In this document: one piece after another, positions 2,139 to 21,022 of the stretch | Numbering within the stretch: position 1 is the stretch's first letter | How the letters are laid out: every line of letters starts with the position of its first letter | Source of the DNA: a bacterium | GTDB taxonomy: Bacteria > UBP6 > UBA1177 | Assembly (NCBI GenBank): GCA_017405875.1 | Contig: JAFQZM010000020.1 | Span: 9,422-73,421 of the forward strand | Direction of reading: 5' to 3' | Length of the DNA: 64,000 bases | The notes under the pieces: generated by a model | Seen by the model: only the letters and a program-made list of their open reading frames with translations | What the model was told of the DNA's origin: nothing | Databases searched by the model: none | Position numbers and translations under genes: made by a program

Positions 2139-3380
2139 CTAATCCCTTCTGAAAAGATCTCTTGTGTAGACTTTCGCTTCAACGTCGTCCAGAACCTTGT
2201 CGTAGCGGTTTGCGATGATAGCGTCACAGCTCTTTTTGAAGCGCTCGATATCGTTGACGACAAGAGAACCGAAAAATGTGGTTCCGTCAGCAAGCGTCGG
2301 CTCGTAAATTATAACCGTCGCACCTTTCGCCTTGATGCGTTTCATAACACCCTGAATCGAACTCTGGCGGAAATTGTCGCTGTTCGCCTTCATCGTGAGC
2401 CTGAAAACTCCTATCGTAATCGGACGCTCCTTTGAAGCGTTCCACATCGAAGAACCCGTGTAATATCCCGCCTTCGCAAGCACTCTGTCTGCGATAAAAT
2501 CCTTTCTCGTGCGGTTGCTGTCAACTATCGCCTGAATCAGGTTTTCAGGAACATCGGCAAAGTTAGCCAAAAGCTGTTTCGTATCTTTCGGAAGGCAGTA
2601 GCCGCCGTATCCGAACGAAGGATTGTTGTACTCATCGCCTATTCTCGGATCGAGACAAACCCCCTTGATGATATTCGCCGTGTCGAGCCCTTTCATCTCG
2701 GCATAAGTGTCAAGCTCGTTGAAGTAGCTGACACGCAGCGCAAGGTATGTATTTGCAAAAAGTTTGACAGCCTCGGCCTCGGTAAAATCCATGAAAAGCG
2801 TCGGAACATCTTTCTTTTCCGCTGCTTCCTGAAGAAGACGGGCAAAAGTTTCCGCTGCCATGCGCGTTTTTTCATCGCATCCGACGATTATCCTGCTCGG
2901 ATAGAGGTTGTCGTAGAGCGCCTTGGATTCGCGCAGAAATTCAGGGCTGAAAAGAATATTTTCGCAACCCGTTTTTTCACGGACATGCCGCGTAAAACCT
3001 ACCGGGATCGTCGATTTTATAACCATAAAAGCCGCAGGATTGACACTTCTGACAAGGTCAATGACCGCTTCGACCGCACTCGTATCGAAAAAGTTTTTCT
3101 GCGGATCGTAGTTCGTCGGCGCTGCAATGATTACGATATCGGCATCGGCATAAGCCGCCGCACCGTCAGTCGTCGCTTTGAGTTTCAAATTTTTCTCAGC
3201 CAAGTATTTTTCAATGTATTCATCCTGAATCGGTGACTTTTTCGCATTGATAAGCTCCACCTTCTCAGGAACGATATCGACCGCCGTTACATCATGATGC
3301 TGGGAAAGCAGCACCGCCAGCGACAAACCTACATAACCAGTGCCGGCAACCGCGATTTTTAGATTTTCAAAATTTCGCAT
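2139..3380 (-). CDS. nucleotide-sugar dehydrogenase, UDP-glucose/GDP-mannose dehydrogenase family (Ugd-like)
   Basis: N-terminal NAD-binding motif [11 protein letters not shown] and catalytic-Cys motif [10 protein letters not shown]. The start was chosen at MRNFEN, preceded by GGAGGA (the track ORF extends further upstream). Confidence 0.8.
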
Positions 3381-3477
3381 TGCATCCTCCGTTAAAACCG
3401 CGCTATAATACTTAATTTTTTGAAAATTACGACAAAAATGCGGCGGCAAAACCATCGATTTTCAGGATTGGGAAGTT

Positions 3478-3573: not shown

Positions 3574-4857
3574 TTACCTGCCGGAATCCTTTTGGGAAAA
3601 AACAACCGATTCTTTCAGATTTTTGGAATATTTTTTCCCGAATTCCGTGATGGATTCATGCTTTCCTGTTCCTGAAGACTTGACTTCTATCGCGTTTACT
3701 TTTGCCCCTTCTGAAATCAGGAAATCGATCTCATAATAATGAGTACTCTGAGGTTTTGACCAAGTGTGATAAAACAGTTCGCGTCCGCTTGCCTCTATCA
3801 TCTGAGCCACCATATTTTCGTAAAGATATCCAAGGTTTGCAGGCAGTTTATCAGAAAGCAGCTTTTCGTAGATATCGTTTTCGGTGCTCGGTCTGTCAAT
3901 AAACATCAGCGTGACAAAAAGCCCTGTGTCGGCCAGATAAAGCTTAAAGTTGTCAAAATTTTTAGCGGAAGAAAGGCTTACTCTCGGATCCGTCGTATCA
4001 TAAGCCGGGATCACCGTTTTGGAATCGATCAAGTCATAAATGCGCTCCTCGTCTTTTGTTGCCTTGCGGTTGCCAGTCGCAAAAGAGACTGAATATTTTT
4101 TCACACCTCTCGCAAGCTGTGACGGGATCGATCTGTATATTGCCGAAAGTCTTCCGGAGTTGTCCAGCTTTTTAAAGTCATCTTCATAAAGTTTTATAAT
4201 ATTGCGCTTCACGGCGTCTATCTCCGAGAAATTTTTGCCTGAAATATAAGCATCCACAGCCTGCGGCATCCCGCCGACAGCCATATAAATACGCAGATCG
4301 CGCATGAGTTTTCTGTTTACAGCCTGTCCCAGTGCTTTTCCCGAGTCATAGACCTGACGCAAAAGTTCATAATTCACATTCTGTGCCGCCCAGGAAAATT
4401 CCTCAAAATCCATCGGTGTCACCTGAATCTTCATTTCTTCAGAAGGAATAAGAATATCCGACACATTTTTCTTGATCGATATCAGAGATCCCGTTTCAAG
4501 ATAATGGTATCTTCCGTCCTGCACCAGATATTTTATCGCCTGCCTCGCTTTTGGAAAAAGTTGCACTTCGTCAAATATCACAAGCGACTTGTGTTTGATC
4601 AGATCAACACCGGTCGTGCTCTGAAGACGCAGAAAGAAGAGATCCGGATCGCTTATATCATTGAAACATGCCAGCAAATTATCAGATGCTTTCGCAAAAT
4701 CTATCAAAACATAGCTTTTATACTCCTTTTTGGCGAATTGTTCCGCAATAGTCGACTTGCCGACACGCCTCGGACCTTCAAGAAGCACCGCATATCTGTC
4801 GGCATAATTTTTTTTCCAATCAAGCAGCTTTTCATAAGTTTTTCTTTTAAAATACAT
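3574..4857 (-). CDS. AAA+ ATPase of the DUF4143/COG1373 family with a PD-(D/E)xK-like C-terminal domain
   Basis: Walker A GPRRVGKST and Walker B LVIFDEVQ. The C-terminal segment YYEIDFLI...AIEVKSS resembles the E-x-D...E-x-K nuclease-fold signature. The start was set at ATG (MYFKRK) with GGAGG 5 nt upstream; the track start is a GTG 4 codons earlier. Confidence 0.75.
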   Translation of the reverse strand: MYFKRKTYEKLLDWKKNYADRYAVLLEGPRRVGKSTIAEQFAKKEYKSYVLIDFAKASDNLLACFNDISDPDLFFLRLQSTTGVDLIKHKSLVIFDEVQLFPKARQAIKYLVQDGRYHYLETGSLISIKKNVSDILIPSEEMKIQVTPMDFEEFSWAAQNVNYELLRQVYDSGKALGQAVNRKLMRDLRIYMAVGGMPQAVDAYISGKNFSEIDAVKRNIIKLYEDDFKKLDNSGRLSAIYRSIPSQLARGVKKYSVSFATGNRKATKDEERIYDLIDSKTVIPAYDTTDPRVSLSSAKNFDNFKLYLADTGLFVTLMFIDRPSTENDIYEKLLSDKLPANLGYLYENMVAQMIEASGRELFYHTWSKPQSTHYYEIDFLISEGAKVNAIEVKSSGTGKHESITEFGKKYSKNLKESVVFSQKDSGR

Positions 4858-4899
4858 CAGTTCCTCCACTCAAAAAGCGGCTCAGCATAGCACATCTTT

Positions 4900-4986
4900 G
4901 CATTTCTTCAAAACTTTTTTCATCGAAAAACCGCATTCCTTCAAAACTTTTTCAGTCAAAAGCCTGCATTCCTTCAAAACTTTTGG
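4900..4986. repeat. three 21-bp direct repeats GCATTyCTTCAAAACTTTT with 33-bp phasing
   Basis: Copies lie at 4900-4920, 4933-4953 and 4966-4986, which is 45-130 bp upstream of the ATPase start. They look like an operator or iteron array. Confidence 0.6.
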
Positions 4987-5090
4987 GTTCGCTGGAGGAT
5001 TTTTTTGTCCAAAACTGCGTCAGGTCTCCCCCGTAGAGATGTGCCGTGGTGCGTCTCCCGAGTTGGCTCTCGCAGAGAGACTGAGAGGTC

Positions 5091-5149
5091 CAGGCATGCG
5101 CCATTTTGTCGTAAGCCGCTTTGTCTTCAAGAAGTTCTTTGAAATTGAA
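5091..5149 (-). pseudogene. 3'-terminal fragment of a second wecB (UDP-GlcNAc 2-epimerase) gene
   Basis: It is about 87% identical at the nucleotide level to 7192-7251 of the intact wecB. Its translation NFKELLEDKAAYDKMAHA matches wecB NFKELLENQAAYDKMAHA. Homology stops abruptly on both sides. Confidence 0.55.
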
Positions 5150-5232
5150 AATAGTAATTTTGAGAGATTTTTACTGGTTTTTCTGTAACTCGCTCTTGTT
5201 TTCTTTGTCAGTCTAAGTATAATTCCCCGTTT

Positions 5233-5264
5233 TTGATGTTTCTCTATGTAAAACATGATAAAAA
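5233..5264 (+). promoter_or_regulatory. putative sigma70-type promoter of darTG (TTGATG, 17-nt spacer, TGaTAAAAT)
   Basis: A -35-like hexamer at 5233-5238 and an extended -10 at 5256-5264 lie about 45 nt upstream of the darT ATG. Confidence 0.35.
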
Positions 5265-5311
5265 TCGCTGCTTTATGGAATTTTTCAATTAAAAATTTTG
5301 GAGAATAAAAA

Positions 5312-5914
5312 ATGCCTATAAGGATTCAAGATGGCAAATTGTTATACCATGTAACTGCTGTTGAAAATTTGGAAAACATTTTCAAACATGGACTTCTTTC
5401 AAGAACAGATGCTATCTCGAAAAAATTATTAAAAGTTAATATTGCTGATCACGAAATCATCGAAAAAAGGAAGGAACTTGGAATCCTGCAATATGTCCCA
5501 TTCCATTTTTATGAAAAAACACCATTTACATGGACTATTTTTAACAACAATCCCGAAAAATCATTTTGCTGCATAACAATCCTCAGAGATTTCGCCAAGC
5601 AGCAAAATTTTAAAATTTGTACCGCCCATCCTTTGTCACAAAATCCCATTGCAGAAGTGTTGGATTATGAAGATGGCTTCCGTAAAATTAATTGGGAAAA
5701 TGCCGAAAAAAGAGATTATGATGATTCAGTAAGCAAAAATGCGTGTATGGCTGAATGTCTCGCTGTTTCGCCTGTAAAACCGGAAGATTTTTTTACAATT
5801 TATATAGCAGACAACAACACAAAGGATTATGTTGAATTTTTGGCGACAAATATATTGGGAAATTATAAATTCTATATCGATGTAAATCCGTCTATAAGCA
5901 AAGCAAGAATATGA
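5312..5914 (+). CDS. darT: DarT, DUF4433 DNA ADP-ribosyltransferase toxin
   Basis: N-terminal LYHVTAVENLENIFKHGLLS, VNIADHEIIEKRK and YVPFHFYEKTPF match DarT signature blocks. An AEcLAV motif carries the putative catalytic Glu. RBS GGAGAA precedes the ATG, and the stop overlaps the darG start (ATGA). Confidence 0.85.
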   Translation: MPIRIQDGKLLYHVTAVENLENIFKHGLLSRTDAISKKLLKVNIADHEIIEKRKELGILQYVPFHFYEKTPFTWTIFNNNPEKSFCCITILRDFAKQQNFKICTAHPLSQNPIAEVLDYEDGFRKINWENAEKRDYDDSVSKNACMAECLAVSPVKPEDFFTIYIADNNTKDYVEFLATNILGNYKFYIDVNPSISKARI

Positions 5915-6963
5915 TAAGATCTGAAACCGGCAACATATTAGATTCTTCCGCGCAGTGTCTTGTGAACACTGTAAACTGCGAAGGATTCATGGGAAAGGGA
6001 ATCGCATATCAATTCAAAGAAAGGTTCCCTGAAAACAACAAAGAATATGTGAAAGCTTGCAAAAACGGGAATCTAACTATCGGAAAGATCTTATTTTTTG
6101 AAGAAGATGGCAAAATCATTGCGAATTTCCCGACTAAAAACAAATGGCGTGAAAAATCACAATATTCTTACATTGACTCTGGCTTGGAAGCCTTGGAAAA
6201 AGGAATAACTGAAAGAAACATCCTATCGCTGGCGATTCCACCGTTAGGATGCGGCAATGGTGGATTGGACTGGAACATCGTAAAACAAAAAATCCTCGAC
6301 AGATTTAAAAATTCAAATGTCGATATAATAATCTATGAACCATCCAAGGTTTTTACCCCCAAACCGATTGTCCACAAAATGTCGGCATCTCATTTGATCT
6401 TGATGATGTTAAAAATCGGTCTTCACCCTATTGGCAAACTTCGATTGCAGAAAGCGGCCTATTTCTTGAACATATTCAGCGGCGACGATTACTTTAAGTT
6501 TGAAGAATACAAATTCGGTCCTTATGATCACGACATTGAGATTTTATCTCAACACATCAAAGATTTTCAAGAAATCTACGGCGTTGACACAGCCGCTGCT
6601 CAGAAAATTCTCTACAACAACATTGTGAGTGACAGCGTAAAAGAAACCGTTGAAAAGTTTACCCCCGCGATACACAAGGCAACTAATTTCGTAAACTCCA
6701 TCGAATCCAATCACGAGCTCGAGATAGCGGCAACAATAGTCTACATCATTAAAGACAATCCTCAATTTAAAGAAGATGAAATCGTTAATTACTTCCTCAA
6801 TGACTGGCCAAAGGAAGATCCGACGAAATTTTCCAAAGAAGAAATAAAGATCTCATTAACCAGACTGATAAAATCGAATATAATTATTCAAAATTTGTTC
6901 GGATACTTTGTTTCTGACGAGATACAAAACAAACCTGATTTATTGCCGACATATCAATTGTAG
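5911..6963 (+). CDS. darG: DarG antitoxin: N-terminal macrodomain plus a C-terminal Panacea/DUF4065-like domain
   Basis: Residues 1-150 closely resemble the DarG macrodomain (GNILDSSAQCLVNTVNCEGFMGKGIAYQFKERFPEN ... IPPLGCGNGGLDW). The C-terminal half carries KLRLQKAAYFLNIF...FEEYKFGPYDHDIE, which resembles DUF4065. It is translationally coupled to darT. Confidence 0.8.
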   Translation: MIRSETGNILDSSAQCLVNTVNCEGFMGKGIAYQFKERFPENNKEYVKACKNGNLTIGKILFFEEDGKIIANFPTKNKWREKSQYSYIDSGLEALEKGITERNILSLAIPPLGCGNGGLDWNIVKQKILDRFKNSNVDIIIYEPSKVFTPKPIVHKMSASHLILMMLKIGLHPIGKLRLQKAAYFLNIFSGDDYFKFEEYKFGPYDHDIEILSQHIKDFQEIYGVDTAAAQKILYNNIVSDSVKETVEKFTPAIHKATNFVNSIESNHELEIAATIVYIIKDNPQFKEDEIVNYFLNDWPKEDPTKFSKEEIKISLTRLIKSNIIIQNLFGYFVSDEIQNKPDLLPTYQL

Positions 6964-7075
6964 TTTACCATCTGTCCAGTTTTCCTTTTTCCACCGCACA
7001 AAACCCTCATTTCAAGATTCATTTTGAAAAATTTTCCGTTTATTTTTCAGAGGTCAAAAAGGTGAAGGCGTTTTA

Positions 7076-7103
7076 ACTGCCCGGAAATGATTGACCGTCA
7101 TAG
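7076..7103. repeat. 27-bp imperfect direct repeat, right copy (CTGcCCGGAAATGaTTGACCGTcATA)
   Basis: Partner of the 3478-3505 copy. It ends 17 nt downstream of the wecB stop codon. Confidence 0.7.
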
Positions 7104-7120
7104 CCAGGAGAGGTCAGATT

Positions 7121-8236
7121 TTACCCCATCCACGGTTCGTATGTTCCAAGTTCTAAAATATCGGCGATACGCTTGCAGGCGTGTCCGTCGCCGTATGGAT
7201 TGCAGGCATGCGCCATTTTGTCATATGCTGCCTGGTTTTCAAGAAGTTCCTTGAAGTTTCTGTAGATTACTTCTTCTTTAGTGCCGACAAGCCTCAGTGT
7301 TCCGGCATCGACTCCTTCAGGACGTTCGGTCGTATCGCGCATTACAAGAACGGGTCTGCCGTATGACGGGCACTCTTCCTGGATGCCGCCTGAATCGGTG
7401 AGACAGAGATGGCATCTTGCTTCGAAATTGTGGCAGTCAAACACTTCTATCGGCTCGATGATTCGGATCTGCGAGCAGTCACCGAGTTCTTCATCAGCCG
7501 CCTGACGGACTACCGGGTTCATGTGTATCGGATAGACTGCTTTGCATTCGGGATGTTCGTCAAGAACGCGCCTTATCGCGCGAAACATGTGATGCATCGG
7601 CTCTCCAAGGTTTTCACGCCTGTGTGCCGTGATGAATATCAGCTTTTTGTCGCCCACCCAGTCAAGAACGGGATGAGTGTAATCTTTTTTCACGGTGTGC
7701 TGCATTGCGTCGATCACGGTGTTTCCCGTAATATAGACTGTTGACGGATCCTTCCCTTCTTTGATGAGGTGTTCTGCCGCAAGCTGCGTCGGGGCAAAGT
7801 TGTATCTGCTGATGATGCCGACCGCCTGACGGTTGAACTCTTCGGGATAAGGGCTGTAGATGTTGTAGGTCCTGAGTCCCGCCTCGACGTGTCCCACCGG
7901 GATCTGCAGATAGAAACAGGCGAGTGCCGTGACGAAAGTGGTCGATGTGTCGCCGTGGACAAGAACGACATCAGGTTTAACTTCTTCAAGAACACCTTTT
8001 ATCCCGTTCAAAATATTGGTGGTGATATCGAAGAGAGTCTGTTTATCCTTCATTATCGAAAGGTCGTAGTCGGGAACTACACCGAAAGTCTCAAGGACCT
8101 GATCGAGCATCTGTCTGTGCTGTCCCGTGACGCAGACGATCGTTTGGATCCCTTTCCTCGTTTTCAACTCGTTGACGAGCGGACAAATCTTTATAGCTTC
8201 GGGCCTTGTGCCGAAAACAAGCATCACTTTTTTCAT
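7121..8236 (-). CDS. wecB: UDP-N-acetylglucosamine 2-epimerase (non-hydrolysing)
   Basis: Typical length, an MLVFGTRPEAIKICPLV N-terminus and conserved HVEAGLRT and DSGGIQEE blocks. The start was set at MKKVM with AGGAG upstream; the track ORF overlaps the wecC stop. Confidence 0.85.
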   Translation of the reverse strand: MKKVMLVFGTRPEAIKICPLVNELKTRKGIQTIVCVTGQHRQMLDQVLETFGVVPDYDLSIMKDKQTLFDITTNILNGIKGVLEEVKPDVVLVHGDTSTTFVTALACFYLQIPVGHVEAGLRTYNIYSPYPEEFNRQAVGIISRYNFAPTQLAAEHLIKEGKDPSTVYITGNTVIDAMQHTVKKDYTHPVLDWVGDKKLIFITAHRRENLGEPMHHMFRAIRRVLDEHPECKAVYPIHMNPVVRQAADEELGDCSQIRIIEPIEVFDCHNFEARCHLCLTDSGGIQEECPSYGRPVLVMRDTTERPEGVDAGTLRLVGTKEEVIYRNFKELLENQAAYDKMAHACNPYGDGHACKRIADILELGTYEPWMG

Positions 8237-8246
8237 AAGTAGGCTC

Positions 8247-9467
8247 CTAAATGTGGTAAACACCCGGAAGTTTGCAGATATTGTGGCAGTCGAGGACTAC
8301 TTTTCCCGAAAGTTTGTCCATGTTTTCTTTGATCTCGTTGTGTTTTACCATGATCACGACGAAATCAACGGCAGCAAGGAACTTGTTAAGGTCGTGGAAC
8401 TGATTCGGAACAACATCTTTCGTAATAAACGGATCATAAACCTTGAGCCCAGTAGCCAAGTGGCGCTCCTGACTTTCAAGAAGCTGCAGAGTCGGACTTT
8501 CGCGCATATCATCGACATTTTCTTTGTAAGTGAGGCCATACAATCCGACTCTGGTAATGTCGGTCATTCCCTTCTCTTTCATGATCTCGTATATCCTGTT
8601 GAGAACGAAATCGGGCATCGCGTCATTGGTGCGCATCGCTTCGTCAATAACTTTTGCTAATGATGGATAATCGCCTACCAGAAACCACGGATCGACTGAA
8701 ATACAGTGTCCGCCGACACCCGGACCCGGCTGAAGGATGTTTACTCTCGGGTGCATGTTGCAGATCCTGATTATCTCATAGACATTCATGTTGTCGTGGC
8801 GGCAGATCTTCGCGAGTTCGTTTGCAAATGCGATATTGACTGCACGGTAAGTGTTCTCAACAACTTTGGTCATTTCTGCTGTTTTGATGTCGGTAACGAC
8901 TATCTCGCCCTGACAGAATGAAGCGTAGATCTTTTTGATCTTCTCACCGATCTCTTTTTCATCTGCACCGATCGTGCGGTTGTTATGCAGAAGTTCATAG
9001 ACCATGTTTCCGGGGATGATACGCTCCGGAGCGTGAACAAGGTGGATATCCTTGCCGATAACAAAGCCGTTCGCCTCTATCACAGGACGGACGAATTTTT
9101 CGATAGTTCCCGGCGAAACCGTCGATTCAATAACGACCGTCGCACCTTTAGGGCAGACTTTCATAACGTCTTTGACAGCCGCAACGACATAGCACGCATC
9201 GACTTTCTTGCTGAATTTGTCGTAAGGAGTCGGGACTGAAACGATGTAAGTGTCAGTGACCTGATATTCGGTCGTGAACTTTATTCCAGCTTTCAGAGCA
9301 TCCTGAAAAAGCTCATCTAAACCGTCTTCCTTGAAAGTCGTTTTCCCTTCATTCAGAGTCGCCACGAGCTCTTTGTTGTAATCCGTGCCGATGACTTCAA
9401 CACCGTGTGATGACAGCATGAGTGCCGTCGGAAGTCCGATGTAACCAAGACCAATTACGTTTACCAT
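8247..9467 (-). CDS. wecC: UDP-N-acetyl-D-mannosamine dehydrogenase
   Basis: NAD-binding VNVIGLGYIGLPTA and catalytic Cys in GVGGHCISVDPWFL. RBS AGGAGG. It sits directly upstream of wecB, giving the classic UDP-ManNAcA pair. Confidence 0.85.
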   Translation of the reverse strand: MVNVIGLGYIGLPTALMLSSHGVEVIGTDYNKELVATLNEGKTTFKEDGLDELFQDALKAGIKFTTEYQVTDTYIVSVPTPYDKFSKKVDACYVVAAVKDVMKVCPKGATVVIESTVSPGTIEKFVRPVIEANGFVIGKDIHLVHAPERIIPGNMVYELLHNNRTIGADEKEIGEKIKKIYASFCQGEIVVTDIKTAEMTKVVENTYRAVNIAFANELAKICRHDNMNVYEIIRICNMHPRVNILQPGPGVGGHCISVDPWFLVGDYPSLAKVIDEAMRTNDAMPDFVLNRIYEIMKEKGMTDITRVGLYGLTYKENVDDMRESPTLQLLESQERHLATGLKVYDPFITKDVVPNQFHDLNKFLAAVDFVVIMVKHNEIKENMDKLSGKVVLDCHNICKLPGVYHI

Positions 9468-9547
9468 TGTTTACCTCCTAAGAATTTTTATAACACAAAT
9501 ATATGATTTGTTGGTTAAACATGTGTTCACCTAATTCCTGCTATTTA

Positions 9548-11353
9548 TTACATTGAAAGCATATATTTTATTTGTTTAAGTGTTATCGGATCTTTTACTT
9601 TCTGGAATTTAGAATTCCACTCACACTCTTTCACAAACAGTTCTTGGCACATAGCATTAATATCTTTCCCTTCAGCCACACCGTGAATAACATACGATAT
9701 GAAATCATCCACATACGAATGTAGATTTTCAATAAGTAACGACAGATATGACATATTTTCTCCATTGTGGATAATCATATTTCTATTTCGATAGATCCGC
9801 ATAATTTGCCACCTGACACGTTTTGCATGCTTTTCCACAAATGAATGAACCCTTTTCGGAGAGGACAACATTTTACCATAATAATTTATGCGTTCCTTCA
9901 ACAGAGGGAAGTCATCACATTTTGCAAGCATAGCTTTCCGCTCTTTTTCTTTTGCATCTAACAATGTAAATTCGCATATTGCTCTAACAATCTCAAACTC
10001 ATTCTCTTCAGAGCCCACGATATCAGTGTATAATTTTTCATTATATGTTTTGATATCATCCACCAACTGCTTAAAAAGAGAATAGATATACTTCTGCTTG
10101 AGCAACGGGACTAAATACATACAGACTTGCTGAATTCGATCTGTTGTATGCTTGTTGCTAATATCTAGAACCGATTCAAAGATAGCCCAACAATCTAAGA
10201 GTTGATTTTCTTCCGACAAACTATCCAAAGCATGAGAATGATACCTTACGGCTCCGATTAGCGGCTTATAGTTTCTATGACTTTTATCATCAATAATTTG
10301 TTTTATGGCTTCACCGGCAACCCTCATATTTTCTGACATCTGCTTATTTGAAGGAAGTTTTGTATGCTCTATCGCTTGCACATCTCGTACAACCTTATAT
10401 ATGTTATCGTCATCTAGAACCACACATTTTGCACTACGGATGCGGCTACTGTAAGTATGGTCATAAAATCGATAGATTGAAGTAACAAGATTTTCGATAG
10501 CATTGACGGCTTGATGCGCTGCAGCAAATGGATCAAGCCCATCCTCATCTACAATAAGAAATTTTTCGCCCTTTTTGTGATTAGAAAAACTCTTATCAAT
10601 CCTATTTTTTAATTCGTCAGGCAAATCGTCAATGCATTTAAAGTAAAGATTATTGAGTATGCTATAGTCAATCATTTTGTTAACATTCTCACTTTTTACT
10701 TTGAACACAACTTTATACTTTTTCTTAGTAAAATCGAATCGTGCAAAAAAACCATCTATTCTACATGGAGAAGCAACAACGGCTGACGGCTCCCAAAACA
10801 GATCATTCATTATCTCATAGATATATCTTAGGCTATAGCCGCTATTCTTCAATTCAGTCAACATGGATTTTGTTAGTCGGAATAGATTTTCCTGCTCATT
10901 ACAGTTGTTTTCCTTAATTATTTTGACTATTTGATCTCGCAATTGGAAATAATATTTATTATTACTAAAAAACACTTGATTTAAAGCATACACTGTCTTT
11001 TTCGAGTCATCACATCCGAATTCAGATACATTCGCACGCAACTCATATTTATCGTTTTGATATTTAAGAAAATAATCTAGAGGCTTGTAATTTTCTTGGA
11101 AAACCGGATCATTTTTCAACTCACAATGAAGCTCTTCCATAATAGGTTTTAAAGTTCCTTCATGGACTCCCTTATATTCAATTCCGTTAATTGCTGTTAT
11201 TGCATCAACGCAAAGATAGTGACTATTCAAAGTAGATATTCTGTTCGAAGGAATAGAATAATCAAAAAGCAACTCATTGACCAACTGTGAAAAGAAAAGC
11301 AGATTCTCACAACCCTTAATATCCGTCCATTTATCTAGATTGCCTCTTTTCAT
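9548..11353 (-). CDS. hypothetical 601-aa protein with a C-terminal RNxxxH (HEPN-like) motif
   Basis: Very AT-rich. It has no signal peptide or TM segments and no glycosyltransferase or P-loop motifs. The C-terminal alpha-helical region contains RIYRNRNMIIHNGE, which fits HEPN Rx4-6H with a polar residue after the Arg. A strong RBS GAGGGGGAGAG precedes the ATG. It is embedded in the polysaccharide operon. Confidence 0.5.
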   Translation of the reverse strand: MKRGNLDKWTDIKGCENLLFFSQLVNELLFDYSIPSNRISTLNSHYLCVDAITAINGIEYKGVHEGTLKPIMEELHCELKNDPVFQENYKPLDYFLKYQNDKYELRANVSEFGCDDSKKTVYALNQVFFSNNKYYFQLRDQIVKIIKENNCNEQENLFRLTKSMLTELKNSGYSLRYIYEIMNDLFWEPSAVVASPCRIDGFFARFDFTKKKYKVVFKVKSENVNKMIDYSILNNLYFKCIDDLPDELKNRIDKSFSNHKKGEKFLIVDEDGLDPFAAAHQAVNAIENLVTSIYRFYDHTYSSRIRSAKCVVLDDDNIYKVVRDVQAIEHTKLPSNKQMSENMRVAGEAIKQIIDDKSHRNYKPLIGAVRYHSHALDSLSEENQLLDCWAIFESVLDISNKHTTDRIQQVCMYLVPLLKQKYIYSLFKQLVDDIKTYNEKLYTDIVGSEENEFEIVRAICEFTLLDAKEKERKAMLAKCDDFPLLKERINYYGKMLSSPKRVHSFVEKHAKRVRWQIMRIYRNRNMIIHNGENMSYLSLLIENLHSYVDDFISYVIHGVAEGKDINAMCQELFVKECEWNSKFQKVKDPITLKQIKYMLSM

Positions 11354-11385
11354 CTCTCCCCCTCACTCATCCAGTTTACTTTTCA

Positions 11386-13155
11386 CTATCCTTTTAGCAA
11401 CTTTCTAAGCAATACACGTTTTACTTTATTGACCAGATTTTTACTCGTAAAAACTTTAATACTTTTCTTAAAATGTTCTTCTGATTCATTTTTTGCTAAA
11501 TATTTAAAAAAGGCATTTCTATAAAGTCCTTGAGGCGTGCTTTTCAATAGTTTAGGGTGAGTCTCTATCGCAAAATCAACTGTTGTTTCTTGCAAAACGG
11601 CATCGTCTTTGATCTTTTCCATCAATTTGTCTCCTTTTTCCGTTTTTACAAAAAGCATGGATATCCCAGCATCATCATCCATGTCAGGATGCAGTTTTTG
11701 AATACCCCAATAATCTCCTATTGTTACATCTGCATAGGAATTGAAATTTTTGAAATCACATTTGTGGCAACATTTTCTAAGCGCAATATTATGTGAAAAC
11801 GCTGAGAAAAATTCACTGTCAGGTCGCAATATAATTTCTTCACCGCCATCCTGATAGATGATTCTGACATTGCTTTTATTCCATCCGTTCGTTTTATCTC
11901 TAAAGAAAAATTGAACTATTTTCTTTTTTGTCCTTTTTTCTAAATAAGAAATATATCTGTGAAAAACCAACGGACTCGGAGCACCATGGCATACCAGATC
12001 GCACAAGAAAAGGTTTTCTGATGCAGCATTTTCCCCTAAATAGCAGTGTAATGCCGCAATCTGGCAAGGCAATCCTGCAACGAACACCTTTTTTTCATTC
12101 TTCAATAAAGTTTGAATTTGCCCGTAAATATGATTTGTGTCGCTCTGGACATACTTTGAATCCCTAAAACCATCTATATCATTAACGGATTTGCACAAAT
12201 CAAAAACCGCATCCAAGTTTTCGTTCAGTTTCACCCCAGCACAAACACCGCCGGATTCTATAAACTTACGGGCCATAAGAGCCCAAGCCCCTCCGGAAGC
12301 ACTTTTCATGCGGCTATCTGTATCGCTGTCTTTCATTGCATAGGCTTTTAACGGTAGATTTTCAATTTTAGGCTGACTAACCGGGCAGTTTTTATAACAT
12401 TTTTCACAATGAACACATGTGTTTGCATCAATACAAGGATACGAAAACCCTTCGAAAGATACCACCATTGAAATACTATGCGTAGGACATATTTCCGAGC
12501 ACAAAGCACAGCCAACACATTTTGTCATATCGGTCAAGACATCATTTTCACCTTTACCCATACCATAAGGCTCCAATTTTTTAAGTATTTTTGCAGGATT
12601 ACCAGCAATAACACAATCTCCTTCCGGGAAACTTTTTGTAACAACTGATCCAGCTCCAACTATCGTATGATTCCCCAAAACCACTCCCGGAAGAATTGAG
12701 CAGTTAATCCCTATCCAGCAGTTATCACCTATAACAATGTCTTTTCCTGCAAGATGCTGCTCCAATTTCTGCATATTATGATTTGCGCTGACGATGCCGA
12801 CATTACATGCACAATAGCAGTTTTTACCAAAAATGATTTTTCCATCAGAAGAAGCACGATAATAGTTTCCTGCCTTTTGAAACAGATTAATATTATCATC
12901 TTCAAAAATAATATTTCGCCAATTTACAACTGTTGCTCTAAATGTAACAGGGAAAGGACAATCTCTGTTTATACCGACAATTTTCTGGATGAAAAAGTCT
13001 TCTATAACCCATCTCCAACCACTTGAATATCGGTATTTATCAAAGAAACGACCTTTCAGATATCGTGATTTATAGAAAATATGTCCTATAATCCACGCTA
13101 TATTTTTTTTCAGAAAACTAACAGCAAATTTTATCGCTCTCTCGGCTTTACTCAT
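11386..13155 (-). CDS. fusion protein: hexapeptide-repeat (LbH) acetyltransferase, 2x[4Fe-4S] ferredoxin, and a coenzyme F420 hydrogenase beta-subunit (FrhB)-like domain
   Basis: Hexapeptide repeats run IVIGDNCWIGINCSILPGVVLGNHTIVGAGSVV...AGNPAKI. Two CxxCxxCxxxCP clusters follow (CVGCALCSEICP, CVHCEKCYKNCP). The C-terminal half carries FrhB-like blocks (SASGGAW, GLPCQIAAL, CHGAPSP). Confidence 0.7.
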   Translation of the reverse strand: MSKAERAIKFAVSFLKKNIAWIIGHIFYKSRYLKGRFFDKYRYSSGWRWVIEDFFIQKIVGINRDCPFPVTFRATVVNWRNIIFEDDNINLFQKAGNYYRASSDGKIIFGKNCYCACNVGIVSANHNMQKLEQHLAGKDIVIGDNCWIGINCSILPGVVLGNHTIVGAGSVVTKSFPEGDCVIAGNPAKILKKLEPYGMGKGENDVLTDMTKCVGCALCSEICPTHSISMVVSFEGFSYPCIDANTCVHCEKCYKNCPVSQPKIENLPLKAYAMKDSDTDSRMKSASGGAWALMARKFIESGGVCAGVKLNENLDAVFDLCKSVNDIDGFRDSKYVQSDTNHIYGQIQTLLKNEKKVFVAGLPCQIAALHCYLGENAASENLFLCDLVCHGAPSPLVFHRYISYLEKRTKKKIVQFFFRDKTNGWNKSNVRIIYQDGGEEIILRPDSEFFSAFSHNIALRKCCHKCDFKNFNSYADVTIGDYWGIQKLHPDMDDDAGISMLFVKTEKGDKLMEKIKDDAVLQETTVDFAIETHPKLLKSTPQGLYRNAFFKYLAKNESEEHFKKSIKVFTSKNLVNKVKRVLLRKLLKG

Positions 13156-13158
13156 CTG

Positions 13159-14331
13159 TTATTCCACCATTATTTTATCTATCGCTCTATCAAAGCTATC
13201 CCTTTCTGAAAGCAAAATCTTCTTTCCCTCCTTAATTCTATTTACATAAGAATGGCGATTATCAATAATGTCTTTCATTTTGCTTTCCATATTAGCAGCA
13301 TCCGTCCCCCCAACAAAACAACAGTCAGAAAGCCCCATCTTATTCATAACATCAGGAATTTTACCCAAATGAACTTTGCTAAAATCCTTTCTGTCAGAGG
13401 AAATTACAGGCGTTTCATTAACCAAAGACAAAAGCGTTCCATGGTAATAATTCGTCAGGGTCAATTCAAACATTCCGAATATCAAAGCCCATTCACATGG
13501 AGCTAATTCTCCCAAAAACAAATCCGCTCCACGAGTGAAATTGTAAAGCGAGATAAAAAAATAATCATTAAAACGCCGTCTGATTTCTACAATTGCTCTC
13601 GTATCTGATTCCATTATTCCGATAATTTTTTTATTCAATGGAATATGATATTTTTTCTTAAGTTCACTTAAAGGATCTCCTGCATTTGGAAATGCATCTT
13701 TTGCAACTTCTTTTAAATCAAGAAAGAAAGTCGGATCACAATTTATATTAGGAACCACAGTCCCTTTCGTTATTTCACTTATAAAATCAGCAGTGTAACT
13801 ATCCCTAACACCCACAAAACGATATCTGGGCAAAACCTTTGCAAAATTAGATAAATCAATCTCGTTTTGCTTTAAATAATCCATCCCGTAGGCAGATGCG
13901 GCATAACTCATTCTGACAGGTCCGTTAAAATCTAAAACATACGGATTGGGGTAGCCTCTTTTGATCCAATTCCAAACAGCATCGCTACCAACAATAACAA
14001 CATCATAATGATCCTTTAAGTACGCTGTAAACGATTCATTGTTTCCGTCAAACTCAAAATGTTCCTTTGATAAAGACAATTTATTCAATTCACTTTGAAA
14101 ATTGTCATATTGTTTCCTTTTCTTCAGTGATACAACAGGGTGTCGAAAAGTCATAAAAGATATTTTTGGCATGTAGTGTTCATGCATTGTTTTACTTTCA
14201 TAATCTATTATCTCGACGACACAATCAGGAAACTTCCGTGCAAGATAATGTGAAAGAGAATAAGCCTGCATAAATGCTCCGTAGTTTATACTTCTGTGGA
14301 ATGTCAAGATTCCTATTCTTTTCTTCATCAA
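13159..14331 (-). CDS. polysaccharide pyruvyl transferase (WcaK/CsaB family)
   Basis: N-terminal IGILTFHRSINYGAFMQAYSL is the family signature. It is adjacent to the FrhB-like gene, a known pairing. Confidence 0.8.
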   Translation of the reverse strand: MMKKRIGILTFHRSINYGAFMQAYSLSHYLARKFPDCVVEIIDYESKTMHEHYMPKISFMTFRHPVVSLKKRKQYDNFQSELNKLSLSKEHFEFDGNNESFTAYLKDHYDVVIVGSDAVWNWIKRGYPNPYVLDFNGPVRMSYAASAYGMDYLKQNEIDLSNFAKVLPRYRFVGVRDSYTADFISEITKGTVVPNINCDPTFFLDLKEVAKDAFPNAGDPLSELKKKYHIPLNKKIIGIMESDTRAIVEIRRRFNDYFFISLYNFTRGADLFLGELAPCEWALIFGMFELTLTNYYHGTLLSLVNETPVISSDRKDFSKVHLGKIPDVMNKMGLSDCCFVGGTDAANMESKMKDIIDNRHSYVNRIKEGKKILLSERDSFDRAIDKIMVE

Positions 14332-14346
14332 ACGATATCCTCCACT

Positions 14347-15795
14347 TTAAACACTCTTTAACTTTTTCCAGTAGTATTTTGCCGGCCTCATCATTATTAA
14401 ACAATACACTACAGCCCATACAACCGCCAATACAACCGCTTGAATATTTCCCGGCAACAATATCTTATGAACAAAATGAAAAGCGACCCCAAGCGCAAGA
14501 TTTACAAGCACCGTCAACGCCATATTCTTCCAAGGAAAAATTTCAGAAAATTTTACATTGATCAATCTTGAAGAGAATACAAGTTGCAATGTACCCATAA
14601 TCAATCCAGACAAAAGCGTTGCGAGTGCTGGTCCAACGACACCCATAATCTTATAAAATGCAATATTCATTATTGTATTCAAACAAAGAGTTCCTACTGC
14701 ACTATAAAAAACCAGCTTCGTTTTTCCTGTGGTATTTAAAACAATACCAAAATATGTGCACCTCAACAAAAGTTCCAAACTATAAATCGCAAATACTGCA
14801 GCTCCTGGCGCATACTTGGCGGAATAAAGCATTGTAATTGCATCTGTTGAAAAAACGGCCATTCCTATACCAAAAAAAGCCATAACAGCAAAAGAAATCG
14901 TGGTTACATCACGCCATATTGCAACAGCCTCTTCATTTTGCTGTTGTTTAAACAGCCTTACCATTTTAGGCATAAGAACAGCAGTTAAAGATGATGCAAC
15001 AATTGTCAAAGGAAGTTCTTTTGACGCAACCGAATAAATCGCCAGATCTTCAGTAGTCAAAAGATGCCCTATCATCAATTTATCGATTTCTATATTCATA
15101 GTTCCTACAACACTCGCTAATCCAAGAGGTATTGAAAAAACAAGCACCGATTTAATCAAATTTTTATCGATATTCCAGTGAAGTCTTCCCGTATACTTTG
15201 AAGCAAGCATATAAACAGCAAGCGCATATAAACCTTCGACAATGACATATAGGATCATATACGTCATAAAGCTGCTGTTTGTGATCCATACATAAAAAAT
15301 GATTAACAGCACGGTTAAACTGTTGGAAATACTATACTTAATCAAAGTCTTAGATTTTCCTAAAACAATCAACACATTTCCGGCACTTGCAATAATAATT
15401 TTTGCCCACGGAAAAATTAGAAGAAAAAATATGAACTGAGCCAGATTAGGATCGCTGAAGTATCGGATCCATATAGGTGTCAACACCACCAATGTTATGC
15501 CGAGAGCTATCGCTAGAATTGTAGAAAAAGTATAATATAGAGATAAAAATCTGTTTTTGTCTTCTTTTGTTTCGGCTCTTGCCAAAAAATAATTGATGGA
15601 ATTCGGCAACCCCAGCATAAATATAACTGTGGCAAGATTTATGACCAGCAAAAGTTCGAAATATATTCCGTTTTCTTCAAGAGTTCTTATTCTTGCCAGC
15701 AGCATTGCCGAGACAAGAGTCAGTATATTGCCGATGATTTTAGAAGCAGTCAGCAGGATTGCATCCGTTGTTAAAGATCCTTCTTTAGCCATCAA
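14347..15795 (-). CDS. wzx: Wzx-type polysaccharide flippase (MOP superfamily)
   Basis: About 12-14 predicted TM helices and a polysaccharide-biosynthesis (Polysacc_synt) N-terminal pattern (ASKIIGNILTLVSAMLLARI). Confidence 0.8.
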   Translation of the reverse strand: MMAKEGSLTTDAILLTASKIIGNILTLVSAMLLARIRTLEENGIYFELLLVINLATVIFMLGLPNSINYFLARAETKEDKNRFLSLYYTFSTILAIALGITLVVLTPIWIRYFSDPNLAQFIFFLLIFPWAKIIIASAGNVLIVLGKSKTLIKYSISNSLTVLLIIFYVWITNSSFMTYMILYVIVEGLYALAVYMLASKYTGRLHWNIDKNLIKSVLVFSIPLGLASVVGTMNIEIDKLMIGHLLTTEDLAIYSVASKELPLTIVASSLTAVLMPKMVRLFKQQQNEEAVAIWRDVTTISFAVMAFFGIGMAVFSTDAITMLYSAKYAPGAAVFAIYSLELLLRCTYFGIVLNTTGKTKLVFYSAVGTLCLNTIMNIAFYKIMGVVGPALATLLSGLIMGTLQLVFSSRLINVKFSEIFPWKNMALTVLVNLALGVAFHFVHKILLPGNIQAVVLAVVWAVVYCLIMMRPAKYYWKKLKSV

Positions 15796-17086
15796 TCAGC
15801 TCACAAAATCTTTTCACTATATTCTTCCAGTTGTATCTCTGCTCAATTCCTTCACTATCAGGATCAAATATAGCAGGTTTTCCGTTGTTAAACTGAACAG
15901 CCTGTTCTTTAAGCCATTCGTATAATTCATGTTCAGTGTTTTTATCGGCACTTTCGTATGAGACACCCAAACTGAATTTATGAATAGTTGACGTGACTTC
16001 CGATCCGGCCAAGTTACCGTCGACAACCGATATGATCGGTTTGTTCATCAGCATATATTCTATGAATTTTCCGGGAAAGACACCTTCTTCGCCCTTTTCA
16101 TTCCATGTTGAAAGCACCAAAAACCTTGAATTGTGTTGAAGATTCAAGCAGTCAACTCTTGAAAGAAAGCCGTGTCCCTTTACAATTCCTTCCATTCCGT
16201 ATTGTTTAGCCTGAGCCGTCAGATATTTAATGTCTTTTCCTGCATAGTTGAAGATCATTTTTTCTTTAGGAAGAATTTCTTCATCAGACAACTGTTTCAA
16301 TGCCTTAAAAAGAGGGCTTAAATCCCGTTTGCCCTCATACAATGCCCCAACATAGGTCATGTCAAAAAGAGAATTTATCGTTGTATTTGGATTTGCCTCC
16401 GGCAGATCGTCGGAATCAAATCCATTAGGAATGACCTCAAATTTATTCGCACTTTCTTTTGTCAGCATCCTGCTTCTGTAACCTTCCGAAACAGTTACAA
16501 CATGATCAGCCACAGCCATGCTTTTCTTTTGCAGATACATATAATACGGATCAAATAATTTAGGCATGATTTTAGAGACCATCGGATCACGAAAATCGTT
16601 TATCCACACAACAGATGGTTTGCGTTTTTTTGCTTCCATACCAGCCAATAAAGAACCTATCGGACCGAAAGTAGAAAACACAAAATCAAAATCTTCCAAT
16701 TTAAGTCTGCCGTCATCAACATAATTGCAAAATGTCCGATAGAAATTTCTTCCTTGTCTATATGCCAAATATTGTCGTTTAGTTCTCTTCAGTGATTGCA
16801 AAAAAGCATAAAACCGACTGTTTTTGGGATTCTCTTTTATTGCATTATTCTCTGTTTGCTGCACATAAACAAGCTTTTCATTGTGTGTTTTTACGACTTC
16901 TGCATATATGACCATGTATGGCGAATTCGAAGCTTCTGATTTTCCAGACAAACATTCGTTGGAAGTAAACACCGTCACATCATAACCATTCAAATTCAAG
17001 TATTTTGCAAGCTTTGTCGGGCGAACTGATCCAACGCTGTTCTTTGGAAAAAACAATTCACTGATTATCATTATTTTCTTACTCAT
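15785..17086 (-). CDS. glycosyltransferase (GT-B fold, GT4-like)
   Basis: The C-terminal half resembles GT4 (LSTWNEKGEEGVFPGKFIEYMLMNKPII). RBS GAGGA. Confidence 0.6.
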   Translation of the reverse strand: MSKKIMIISELFFPKNSVGSVRPTKLAKYLNLNGYDVTVFTSNECLSGKSEASNSPYMVIYAEVVKTHNEKLVYVQQTENNAIKENPKNSRFYAFLQSLKRTKRQYLAYRQGRNFYRTFCNYVDDGRLKLEDFDFVFSTFGPIGSLLAGMEAKKRKPSVVWINDFRDPMVSKIMPKLFDPYYMYLQKKSMAVADHVVTVSEGYRSRMLTKESANKFEVIPNGFDSDDLPEANPNTTINSLFDMTYVGALYEGKRDLSPLFKALKQLSDEEILPKEKMIFNYAGKDIKYLTAQAKQYGMEGIVKGHGFLSRVDCLNLQHNSRFLVLSTWNEKGEEGVFPGKFIEYMLMNKPIISVVDGNLAGSEVTSTIHKFSLGVSYESADKNTEHELYEWLKEQAVQFNNGKPAIFDPDSEGIEQRYNWKNIVKRFCELIDG

Positions 17087-17097
17087 TCAAAAAATCC

Positions 17098-18201
17098 TCA
17101 AAAATTATTGGTTTGTGCCGTTTTTATCAATGATATTTTTTGCACTACTATATTAAGCATCATATCTGAAAAATGGTTCAACGGAATGCAAACAATCAAA
17201 CTCAAAACCAATGTAAGTACATTTTTTACCAATCCGCTATGAACAACAGAACCTAAAAGATATATAAAAACGATCCGAAGTTCGCTGTGCCATCCCATTA
17301 TATGCAAGCTGTTAACACCATAATATGTTAAAGATTTTCGAAGTACCGCTATCCTTTCGAACTCTATTGAAAGCGCAACTGTTCCCCAAAAACCACATGT
17401 AGCTTTCAACAGAAAAAGTAGGACTGAATCATATGAATTTCTGCTCATAGAATCTGTTCCACCCACAAGAATAATAATTCCATAGCACATTAAAGGAAAA
17501 ATCACCCTATAGTCTTTTAGCACCTTATAAGTTTCTGAAAATTTGAAAATATATGTTTTGAATGCATCTCCAAGATAAAAAAACACCAAACCAGTAAGAG
17601 CTGAAGAGATACACCACGGTAAAGCATTTCCTTTCAGGAAAAATCCGCCTGAAATAAAGGCTAAGCCAACCACAACCGCTTTTATGTATTTATTACTGAC
17701 GAATGAGATTGCTTCATACATCAATCTAATAGCGAAATACATTGACAAATACCACATTGCCCCAATTGAAATTCCGGTAATATTTCCGTTGCCGGAAATA
17801 ATCGTCAGCAGATAATCCCAAATGTTGTGATTTATTGGAGATTTATTCAAAACAAAGGATTTCCATAAGTATTCAAACAATATCCATAAAGTCGTAAAAA
17901 ACAAATAGGCATAGAGTACTCTTAACAAATCATGTCTACAAAAATCCTTAACGCTATTCCGTTTTTTATACACCATTCCCGAAGCAAATAAAAACAGTGG
18001 AACATGAAACGAATATATAAAGTTTTTTATATCCGGATTTATGCTATCCAAGCTCAAATGTCCAATGACAATCAAGATGATGGCTATGCCTTTAAGTATA
18101 TCAAGCCATTCAATTCTTTTGGCTGTTACCACTCCAAATTCCGATTGCATTTTTTTTCGACTCAAAATTTTCACCAACCTAAAGAAGTATAATTTTCGCA
18201 A
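17098..18201 (-). CDS. membrane acyltransferase family 3 (OatA/WecH-like O-acyltransferase)
   Basis: Polytopic membrane protein with WLDILKGIAIILIVIGH near the N-terminus. The start is ambiguous between TTG at 18201 and ATG at 18150. Confidence 0.7.
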   Translation of the reverse strand: MRKLYFFRLVKILSRKKMQSEFGVVTAKRIEWLDILKGIAIILIVIGHLSLDSINPDIKNFIYSFHVPLFLFASGMVYKKRNSVKDFCRHDLLRVLYAYLFFTTLWILFEYLWKSFVLNKSPINHNIWDYLLTIISGNGNITGISIGAMWYLSMYFAIRLMYEAISFVSNKYIKAVVVGLAFISGGFFLKGNALPWCISSALTGLVFFYLGDAFKTYIFKFSETYKVLKDYRVIFPLMCYGIIILVGGTDSMSRNSYDSVLLFLLKATCGFWGTVALSIEFERIAVLRKSLTYYGVNSLHIMGWHSELRIVFIYLLGSVVHSGLVKNVLTLVLSLIVCIPLNHFSDMMLNIVVQKISLIKTAQTNNF

Positions 18202-19934: not shown

Positions 19935-21022
19935 AACTTACAACACCGTTTAAACATTTCATTCTGACGGCGATGAATATCGTCCCAACTTGGCCATTTT
20001 TCTATCCTTTTAACAGCATTTTCATGCTTTTCATCCATTTCTTCAGGGTGCATATAAACATATTTGCACATATTAAACAATCCGTCAGGCAAACTGTTTT
20101 TATAAATAAAAGCTTCCTGTTCCGATAAGACCTCCGTCAAACCATATACATCGGAAATGATAACAGGTTTTCCATATTGAACTGCATCAAATATTTTCAA
20201 TGGAATTGCTGTGTTGCTTTCCAGAGTCGACGGACGGGGAATCATCAACACATCTATCTCTCTGGCAAGACTATCCGCTTTTTCTTTAGGAATAAGCCCG
20301 GTAACAATTACACGCCCGGGATACTTTTTCTCTAGTGCCTTAAATTCCTCCTCTTTTTCTCCTCCACCGATCATATACAGGCGAACATTTGATCCTATCG
20401 ACAAAATACTTTCTGCATTTTGCAAAATTACCCCTGTTCCTTGCCAACGATAAAAAGTGCCAATGTATCCAAATGTAAAAAATTCAGGATTTCCCGGTTC
20501 CCGACCACAAGAATCAAAATGTGGAACACCGTTCGGAAGAAAACATATTTTTTCCTGTCTTACACCATAATGCTTTTCGATGTAATGCTCAGCACCCCTC
20601 GACAGTGTAAAATAGCAGCTTGTTCTTCTGTTCAAAATAAAACGATGTAACAGGTCCTTTGCCAGCATCTTAATTGGTCTGGATGTTATTAAAGAATGAA
20701 TTTCTGTCATAACAACGACTTGTTTCGGTAACACAGAACAGGCTATAATATTTGCCGGAATGATATGGGTAACAACAATATCAATGTCATGCCGTTTTAC
20801 AATATCAGGAAGTAGCACTTTGGCATCATTCAAATTTTGAATACGAAAGATCCGTATTCCTGTTGCCTCAAAATATACATCATCATCGAAATCTTTAGGA
20901 GGTGTAGTGGTCATTACAAACAATTTATTGCCACATTTATTGTCCTCAAGCATTCGGGACATTCGCACTACATTTCCACCACGGTTGGGATGATAGAAAC
21001 AACCAAAATGCAAAATATTCAC
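19931..21022 (-). CDS. glycosyltransferase family 4
   Basis: GT-B fold with a GT4 C-terminal domain (GGGEKEEEF...DVLMIPRPS...AVQYGKPVI). Confidence 0.75.
   Translation of the reverse strand: MNILHFGCFYHPNRGGNVVRMSRMLEDNKCGNKLFVMTTTPPKDFDDDVYFEATGIRIFRIQNLNDAKVLLPDIVKRHDIDIVVTHIIPANIIACSVLPKQVVVMTEIHSLITSRPIKMLAKDLLHRFILNRRTSCYFTLSRGAEHYIEKHYGVRQEKICFLPNGVPHFDSCGREPGNPEFFTFGYIGTFYRWQGTGVILQNAESILSIGSNVRLYMIGGGEKEEEFKALEKKYPGRVIVTGLIPKEKADSLAREIDVLMIPRPSTLESNTAIPLKIFDAVQYGKPVIISDVYGLTEVLSEQEAFIYKNSLPDGLFNMCKYVYMHPEEMDEKHENAVKRIEKWPSWDDIHRRQNEMFKRCCKL

Follow-up and report, generated by a model that had tools for sequence, protein, structure and literature searches.

What is a gene for a 601-amino-acid protein doing inside a surface-polysaccharide operon, when the protein itself resembles no glycan enzyme? 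The question is raised by a stretch of 64,000 nucleotides of contig JAFQZM010000020.1 (assembly GCA_017405875.1, positions 9,422 to 73,421 of the forward strand), referred to here as the window, which carries, exactly where a preliminary description of this DNA had placed it, an open reading frame of 601 codons on the minus strand (9548..11353). The preliminary description guessed at a HEPN RNase serving as a defence or abortive-infection effector in a glycan operon, before it was realized that the family has a name, ApeA, and a mechanism worked out since 2026; ApeA homology, the HEPN fold, residue conservation and the contexts of homologues now support that guess. The protein is very likely a divergent ApeA, a stand-alone protein of about 600 amino acids for defence against phages, whose HEPN domain would cleave tRNA, by homology to Ec2ApeA. 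Both the family and its mechanism have already been described, and the protein adds a further member rather than a system of a new kind.

Each ApeA protein works as a single-gene abortive-infection system; HEPN dimers build decameric or dodecameric rings that are needed for defence, and a ligand that binds in the pocket formed between the HEPN domain and the N-terminal domain triggers cleavage of the tRNA anticodon loop (bioRxiv 10.64898/2026.01.26.701840). The ligand of Ec2ApeA is a 5'-phosphorylated deoxydinucleotide ending in G (pdNG), which probably stems from phage nucleases degrading host DNA, and E74 reads the guanine of the pdCG activator (bioRxiv 10.64898/2026.01.26.701840). Mutations of the HEPN arginine, the pocket or the ring interface abolish ApeA defence, the interface being described as poorly conserved; in Ec2ApeA, R502A abolishes defence, which R502A, R490A, Q494Y, H487A and Y401F as a set abolish or impair, Y37F is likewise impairing, and H521 helps to exclude ribose (bioRxiv 10.64898/2026.01.26.701840). 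The catalytic HEPN arginine is essential in both Ec2ApeA (R502) and Ec1ApeA (R521). ApeA is widespread, Bacillati included (bioRxiv 10.64898/2026.03.20.713152), and RNA cleavage on infection or phage resistance is known only for Ec1ApeA to Ec4ApeA, Pa1ApeA, Ps2ApeA and a few others.

Full-length homology to ApeA

A profile built from 39 members of the clade matched four Ec2ApeA entries in the PDB (9hxi, 9hxd, 9hxe and 9hxb) with E-values of 8e-77 to 2e-75, the alignment being colinear over positions 1-591 of the profile and 1-576 of Ec2ApeA. The same search recovered Ec3ApeA (E 2e-63) and, over the HEPN half only, Ec4ApeA (E 4e-9). A single-sequence phmmer search of the PDB also retrieved Ec2ApeA (E 1.7e-48), to which the 601-amino-acid protein is 26% identical by BLASTP (E 3e-54). 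No PDB chain named Ec1ApeA was found in either the profile or the single-sequence search. The protein displays every ApeA feature that can be tested at the level of sequence and fold, and a predicted fold other than HEPN, named beforehand as an outcome that would speak against the HEPN assignment, was not obtained, the C-terminal part having the HEPN fold. In the structure model, which is of the monomer only, the beta strands of the Mid domain span residues 211-220, 238-241, 263-272, 309-313 and 318-321. No segment of the protein is hydrophobic (maximum 19-residue Kyte-Doolittle mean 0.88), in agreement with the earlier statement that transmembrane segments are absent.

The protein is not an orphan, as had been supposed. 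A word-indexed search returned at least 211 homologue clusters (90% identity clustering), and those listed are nearly all full length (590-600 amino acids) and 50-64% identical to the protein; among the 120 clusters listed, all have E-values of 1e-181 or below and none bears a functional name. An exhaustive profile search widened the family to 1,899 clusters (50% identity) at E <=1e-3, with 555 at E <=1e-30. All genomes with homologues are metagenome-assembled genomes of Clostridia, many of them from the rumen or gut.

Predicted catalytic motif and ligand pocket

Near the C-terminus, RIYRNRNMIIHNGE starts at residue 519 and includes R524-N-M-I-I-H529, an Rx4H motif with Asn after the Arg, so that the Rx4-6H signature with a polar residue following the arginine had been correctly recognized; the residue numbers given for it, R527 and H532, are three off in the 601-amino-acid frame. 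When the Ec2ApeA sequence was added to the alignment of the 39 clade members, R524, N525 and H529, all invariant (39/39), aligned with R502, N503 and H507 of Ec2ApeA.

The predicted activator pocket has one wall in the N-terminal domain (S36, N37, S40, T41, L42, E74, F158 and K162) and is completed by residues of the HEPN_ApeA domain (Y422, Y491, H509, R512, Q516, N543 and Y547). At the sequence level, 8 of the about 13 side-chain contacts of Ec2ApeA are identical and mostly invariant: E74, Y422, Y491, H509, Q516 and Y547 (E74, Y401, Y469, H487, Q494 and Y525 in Ec2ApeA) do not vary in the clade, R512 (Ec2ApeA R490) is Arg in 35 of the 39 members, and position S40 is Ser or Ala. The other 5 contacts are clade-fixed substitutions, with T36 of Ec2ApeA replaced by S, Y37 by N37, R148 by F158, R152 by K162 and H521 by N543. 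These substitutions could change ligand specificity, and they offer a natural comparison for how that specificity is set in ApeA. Among the ring-interface residues, Q570, E576 and F95 are kept. Outside the catalytic motif, several cysteines and histidines (C411, C569, C577, H299, H330, H372 and H545) do not vary across the clade. In Ec2ApeA and Ec3ApeA, the HEPN and Mid domains have a structural Zn2+ bound between them (bioRxiv 10.64898/2026.01.26.701840).

Proposed mechanism and its weighing

Our analysis points to ligand-gated, HEPN-catalysed tRNA cleavage as the most likely activity of the protein. By homology to Ec2ApeA, it would consist of an N-terminal helical part, a Mid part and a C-terminal split HEPN RNase, and two HEPN domains would dimerize into a composite RNxxxH active site. 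At the surface, a pocket flanked by the N-terminal domain and the HEPN domain would bind a small nucleotide-type product of infection, and binding would lead to cleavage of the tRNA anticodon loop, a stop of translation and aborted infection.

Several observations weigh against this reading. The nearest characterized ApeA is only 26% identical. Pfam, NCBIfam and PADLOC scans of the whole sequence and of its last 150 and 250 residues yielded nothing usable: there is no NCBIfam domain and no Pfam-A match even at E 10, and the ApeA model of PADLOC v2.0.0 matches neither the protein nor any of the 39 clade members. A PADLOC match to DruH (E 0.0036, 13 bits, 1 of the 39 members) was dismissed as chance. 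The PADLOC model matches Ec2ApeA itself only weakly (1.7e-12), and Ec2ApeA has no Pfam match either; the missing matches reflect the reach of the models, not non-membership. Foldseek gave no significant match in the PDB, the ApeA entries being apparently absent from that copy of the library. Y37, H521, R148 and R152 of Ec2ApeA are replaced clade-wide by N, N, F and K, respectively, and given that Y37F impairs Ec2ApeA and H521 helps to exclude ribose, the ligand may differ. The regulatory loop of Ec2ApeA (331-341) is not conserved in the clade and its key oligomerization residue, R551, is Phe (F573) here, so that decamer formation and the relay from the pocket to the active site are putative in this protein. 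Transcription of the gene together with the operon, discussed below, is likewise a prediction from gene layout. Finally, ApeA homologues vary in target and outcome: Ec1ApeA also stops single-stranded RNA phages, cutting their genomes without killing the cell (bioRxiv 10.64898/2026.03.20.713152).

This diversity of triggers and targets among ApeA homologues, together with the invariant pocket substitutions Y37N, H521N, R148F and R152K, could also point to an ApeA that cuts phage RNA directly and non-abortively, as Ec1ApeA does with single-stranded RNA phages, or that answers to an activator other than pdNG. We regard this as rather unlikely: the pocket is much closer to that of Ec2ApeA than the pocket of Ec1ApeA is, with E74, S40, R512, H509 and Y491 retained in this protein, while the positions equivalent to E74, S40, R490 and H487 carry other residues in Ec1ApeA. 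In addition, single-stranded RNA phages of Clostridia are hardly known.

Homologues among defence and mobility genes

The genomic contexts of homologues were examined in eight lineages, seven in addition to that of the window, and in these seven the gene is a stand-alone gene in defence islands or mobile elements. One homologue shares an integrative mobilizable element with relaxase and resolvase genes, a T5orf172 helicase and a type IIG restriction-modification gene; in another context (L024 2708-4153, homologue P0002), the gene adjoins YaaC and is near a KAP NTPase and a transposase. Others are located between a type I restriction-modification system (before) and a HipA-like gene (after), next to a PLD-helicase and an SLFN-like helicase, among HNH and methylase genes adjoining an M78/DUF4411 pair, and after a HaeIII restriction-modification system on an integrase/Mob element. 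In the last context (L032 3595-8788, homologue P0042), the gene follows three tandem serine recombinase genes and lies beside another polysaccharide locus. Searches of plasmids (PLSDB) and phages (INPHARED) by tblastn produced no match at E 1e-5 or better, and gave no sign that plasmids or phages carry this clade.

Two of these contexts have further features. P0002, at 64% identity the closest non-self homologue, is directly 3' of a 481-amino-acid YaaC-family protein (PF14175), and the transposase near it is a Mu-like pair. P0042 represents a second, independent ApeA next to a glycan locus, with obvious mobility genes, and this locus holds pyruvyl transferase and FrhB-like genes.

An RNase toxin could also persist as an addiction module or selfish gene that stabilizes or spreads the DNA carrying it, here the polysaccharide cassette, rather than by protecting against phages. 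We consider this very unlikely, as no antitoxin gene, of MNT type or otherwise, borders the gene, the sequence shows the full ApeA architecture together with its sensor pocket, the characterized ApeA members are infection-triggered defence proteins, and homologues adjoin restriction-modification and other defence genes. A HepT/MntA-type toxin-antitoxin system in particular, in which a small HEPN toxin is paired with a neighbouring MNT nucleotidyltransferase antitoxin, does not match the length of 601 amino acids, the identity of the neighbours (an acetyltransferase-FrhB fusion and wecC) and the absence of an MNT gene.

The gene in its polysaccharide locus

Domain scans identified the minus-strand gene string around the ApeA-family gene as a polysaccharide locus, comprising, in order, genes for a Polysacc_synt_2 dehydratase, a DegT aminotransferase, an initiating Bac_transf, an ATP-grasp/HAD protein, glycosyltransferases and Wzy, then a heparinase II/III-like protein, an acyltransferase, a GT4 glycosyltransferase, a flippase and a pyruvyl transferase, and finally an acetyltransferase-4Fe4S-FrhB fusion, the ApeA-family protein, WecC and WecB. 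An identical protein is encoded on 20 metagenome contigs, and the arrangement of genes is the same on all of them. As described previously, the gene is in line with its neighbours, at distances of 32 bp from the upstream gene (stop at 11386) and 80 bp from wecC (start at 9467), and is preceded by a strong ribosome-binding site, GAGGGGGAG, which ends 2 nt before the ATG. A terminator scan found no terminator-like site or hairpin in either gap bordering the gene; promoter-like sites around it are not more frequent than in shuffled sequence, and the two gaps contain none. Because there is no terminator on either side, the gene is probably transcribed with the polysaccharide operon.

The GC content of the gene (0.343) is that of the variable polysaccharide block at 9.5-24 kb (about 0.35 overall, 0.335-0.396 per gene) and differs only from the genes downstream. 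Thus, the statement that it is far more AT-rich than its neighbours applies to wecC (0.467) and wecB (0.502), but not to the upstream operon genes (0.365, 0.348 and 0.364). A 13-nt AT-rich inverted repeat (9497-9509 and 9556-9568; arms 92% complementary, 46 nt apart) encloses the stop codon of the gene together with part of the 80 bp that lead to wecC; it fails as an intrinsic terminator.

The directly upstream fusion gene (Table 1) is itself directly 3' of the polysaccharide pyruvyl transferase gene. Many homologues of the FrhB fusion, of about 380-390 amino acids, have no acetyltransferase part, and some are fused to a pyruvyl transferase instead. The locus region contains two UDP-N-acetylglucosamine 2-epimerase genes (7121-8263, wecB, and 32235-33401) and two nucleotide-sugar dehydrogenase genes (8247-9467, wecC-like, and 2139-3455, ugd-like). 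The listed wecB frame and wecC share 17 nt; with the later start chosen by gene callers, wecB encodes a protein of 371 amino acids.

Empty site and exchange between strains

A variant of the same strain without the gene was sought by looking up the exact wecC, which retrieved only contigs with the same arrangement, and the empty site was therefore taken from two more distant loci, L041 and L042. In both, the acetyltransferase-FrhB gene directly adjoins wecC, across gaps of 91 and 52 bp, respectively, with no gene between; identities to the window are 76% and 74% for acetyltransferase-FrhB and 90% and 87% for wecC. In the genome of the window, the gene was inserted at this junction, after the last variable polysaccharide gene and ahead of wecC. 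At both empty sites, the intergenic DNA is too diverged for exact breakpoints, and no convincing direct or inverted repeats flank the gene as insertion scars.

A sister strain (GCA_018396375.1, L038) has the ApeA-family gene in the same slot. By blastn, the gene is 99.7% and both gaps are 100% identical in nucleotide sequence to the window, compared with 92.0% for acetyltransferase-FrhB, 92.1% for wecC, 94.0% for wecB and 75.8% for the flippase gene. The differences delimit a near-identical block (Table 1), the flanks of which differ by about 8%, and the strains have evidently exchanged this segment in the recent past, by recombination through the genes on either side. The same mosaic pattern recurs in other blocks of the locus, e.g., at 12800-14200. 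The whole locus is a recombination mosaic (window 7027-20159 against L038 1-13129): between the two strains, identity is 99.2-99.6% for the genes of the pyruvyl transferase, the acyltransferase and the heparinase II/III-like protein and 96% for the GT4 gene.

The preliminary description had also considered, as its alternative, a novel polysaccharide-modifying protein, and a protein modifying or regulating the polysaccharide as a functional part of the operon would fit the in-line position with short gaps and no terminators, the GC content equal to that of the variable polysaccharide genes and the position of P0042 beside a second polysaccharide locus. However, no glycosyltransferase, acyltransferase, pyruvyltransferase or sugar-nucleotide domain was detected, as the earlier remark on missing glycan-enzyme motifs had implied, and the homology to an antiviral RNase extends over the full length. 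Moreover, the related polysaccharide loci L041 and L042 lack the gene, glycan genes are not found nearby in 6 of the 8 lineages examined, and the three serine recombinases accompanying P0042 mark it as cargo of a mobile element. Co-occurrence with glycan enzymes only, which had been named as an outcome that would speak against a defence role, was not observed, homologues adjoining defence and mobility genes instead. A role in polysaccharide modification or regulation is the least credible of the explanations considered, with hardly any probability left to it, and ApeA-type defence is retained as the most probable function of the gene.

Neighbouring variable defence spot

Downstream of wecB, the genes of the toxin-antitoxin defence pair DarT-DarG end 2.6 kb from the ApeA-family gene, as had been noted, and PADLOC confirms both; they provide context and are not part of ApeA. 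Together with a PDC-S01 candidate, they lie within 5 kb of the gene according to PADLOC. In the sister strain, the spot downstream of wecB (L038 13295-15770) is occupied by SIR2_2 and HerA-like (DUF87) genes instead; the end of the polysaccharide locus (window 3574-6963) is a small variable defence spot. The defence genes sit between ugd (2139-3455) and wecB/wecC, all of them sugar-nucleotide genes. A literature search on defence genes inside capsule loci retrieved nothing directly relevant.

Table 1. Positions, in window coordinates, of the ApeA-family gene, its parts and the features around it
Feature	Position	Strand	Description
ApeA-family gene	9548..11353	minus	Open reading frame, 601 amino acids plus stop, ATG start; member of a Clostridia clade of single-protein HEPN antiphage RNases (by homology)
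N-terminal helical domain	10730..11353	minus	Residues 1-208, corresponding to Ec2ApeA 1-198
Mid alpha/beta domain	10376..10729	minus	Residues 209-326, corresponding to Ec2ApeA 199-309; from the alignment
Split HEPN_ApeA domain	9551..10285	minus	Residues 357-601, corresponding to Ec2ApeA 335-583
HEPN catalytic motif R519-I-Y-R-N-R524-N525-M-I-I-H529	9767..9799	minus	From the sequence
Shine-Dalgarno GAGGGGGAG	11356-11364	minus	From the sequence; in the 32-bp gap 3' of the upstream acetyltransferase-FrhB gene
Near-identical block with L038	9321..11272	minus	2 differences only; per-gene blastn and mismatch map
Acetyltransferase-FrhB fusion	11386-13155	minus	589 amino acids: hexapeptide O-acetyltransferase, 2x[4Fe-4S] ferredoxin and FrhB_FdhB_C
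DarT	5312-5914	plus	Pfam DarT; PADLOC E 8e-30
DarG	5911-6963	plus	Pfam Macro; PADLOC E 1e-94
PDC-S01 candidate ATPase	3574-4869	minus	AAA_14/DUF4143 domains; PADLOC 3e-90

Significance of the locus

The assignment gives a function to several hundred unannotated proteins of about 600 amino acids in gut and rumen Clostridia. Since Pfam and the ApeA model of PADLOC v2.0.0 miss the clade, censuses built on them would undercount ApeA in Clostridia. Knowledge of how ApeA works is left unchanged by this protein. The locus presents a defence gene within a surface-polysaccharide operon, exchanged between strains via the flanking glycan genes and located beside a spot that holds either DarTG or SIR2-HerA, and is a small concrete case linking phage-receptor variation to intracellular defence.

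A bolder proposal, to which we give only a small chance, holds both that the clade senses an infection signal other than that of Ec2ApeA and that the placement in the operon couples expression of the abortive RNase to the glycan serving as phage receptor or shield. With the guanine-reading Glu74 kept, His521 lost and Y37, R148 and R152 exchanged, the pocket might accept ribo-dinucleotides or another product of nucleotide breakdown. If this were true, a receptor variant and its back-up defence would travel together as a single recombining cassette, in inheritance as in exchange.

Comparison with known systems

PrrC and RloC abort phage infection by cleaving tRNA anticodons and have an ABC-ATPase-like N-terminal domain, PrrC being restrained by a type Ic restriction-modification system. 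Domain scans detected no ATPase motif or domain in the 601-amino-acid protein, which differs in this respect from both. HepT of HepT-MntA (PDB 8xdj, 7ae2 and 5yep) is a protein of about 130 amino acids with a cognate MNT antitoxin, in contrast to the protein described here, in which sensor domains are present and for which an antitoxin gene is absent. Ec1ApeA, the original ApeA, reportedly comes from the work of Gao et al. 2020, and the PADLOC model PDLC02157 was presumably built around it. Like the 601-amino-acid protein, it has about 600 amino acids and a C-terminal HEPN domain; it is active against phage and, according to the 2026 papers, belongs to the same family, but its pocket differs (bioRxiv 10.64898/2026.01.26.701840). 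PrrC is listed among the HEPN effectors in the same study (bioRxiv 10.64898/2026.01.26.701840).

The closest counterpart is Ec2ApeA of E. coli 2-156-04_S4_C1 (bioRxiv 10.64898/2026.01.26.701840). The two share their length, the order of three domains, colinearity over the full length and the single-gene organization, as well as the HEPN RN..H motif (R524 and H529, equivalent to R502 and H507) and, in the pocket, E74, S40, Y422, Y491, H509, R512, Q516 and Y547. They differ in that only 26% of the sequence is identical, five pocket positions carry clade-fixed changes, conservation does not extend to the regulatory loop and R551 is replaced by F573, and the protein described here comes from a Clostridia bacterium of the gut or rumen, in which its gene is embedded in a polysaccharide operon.

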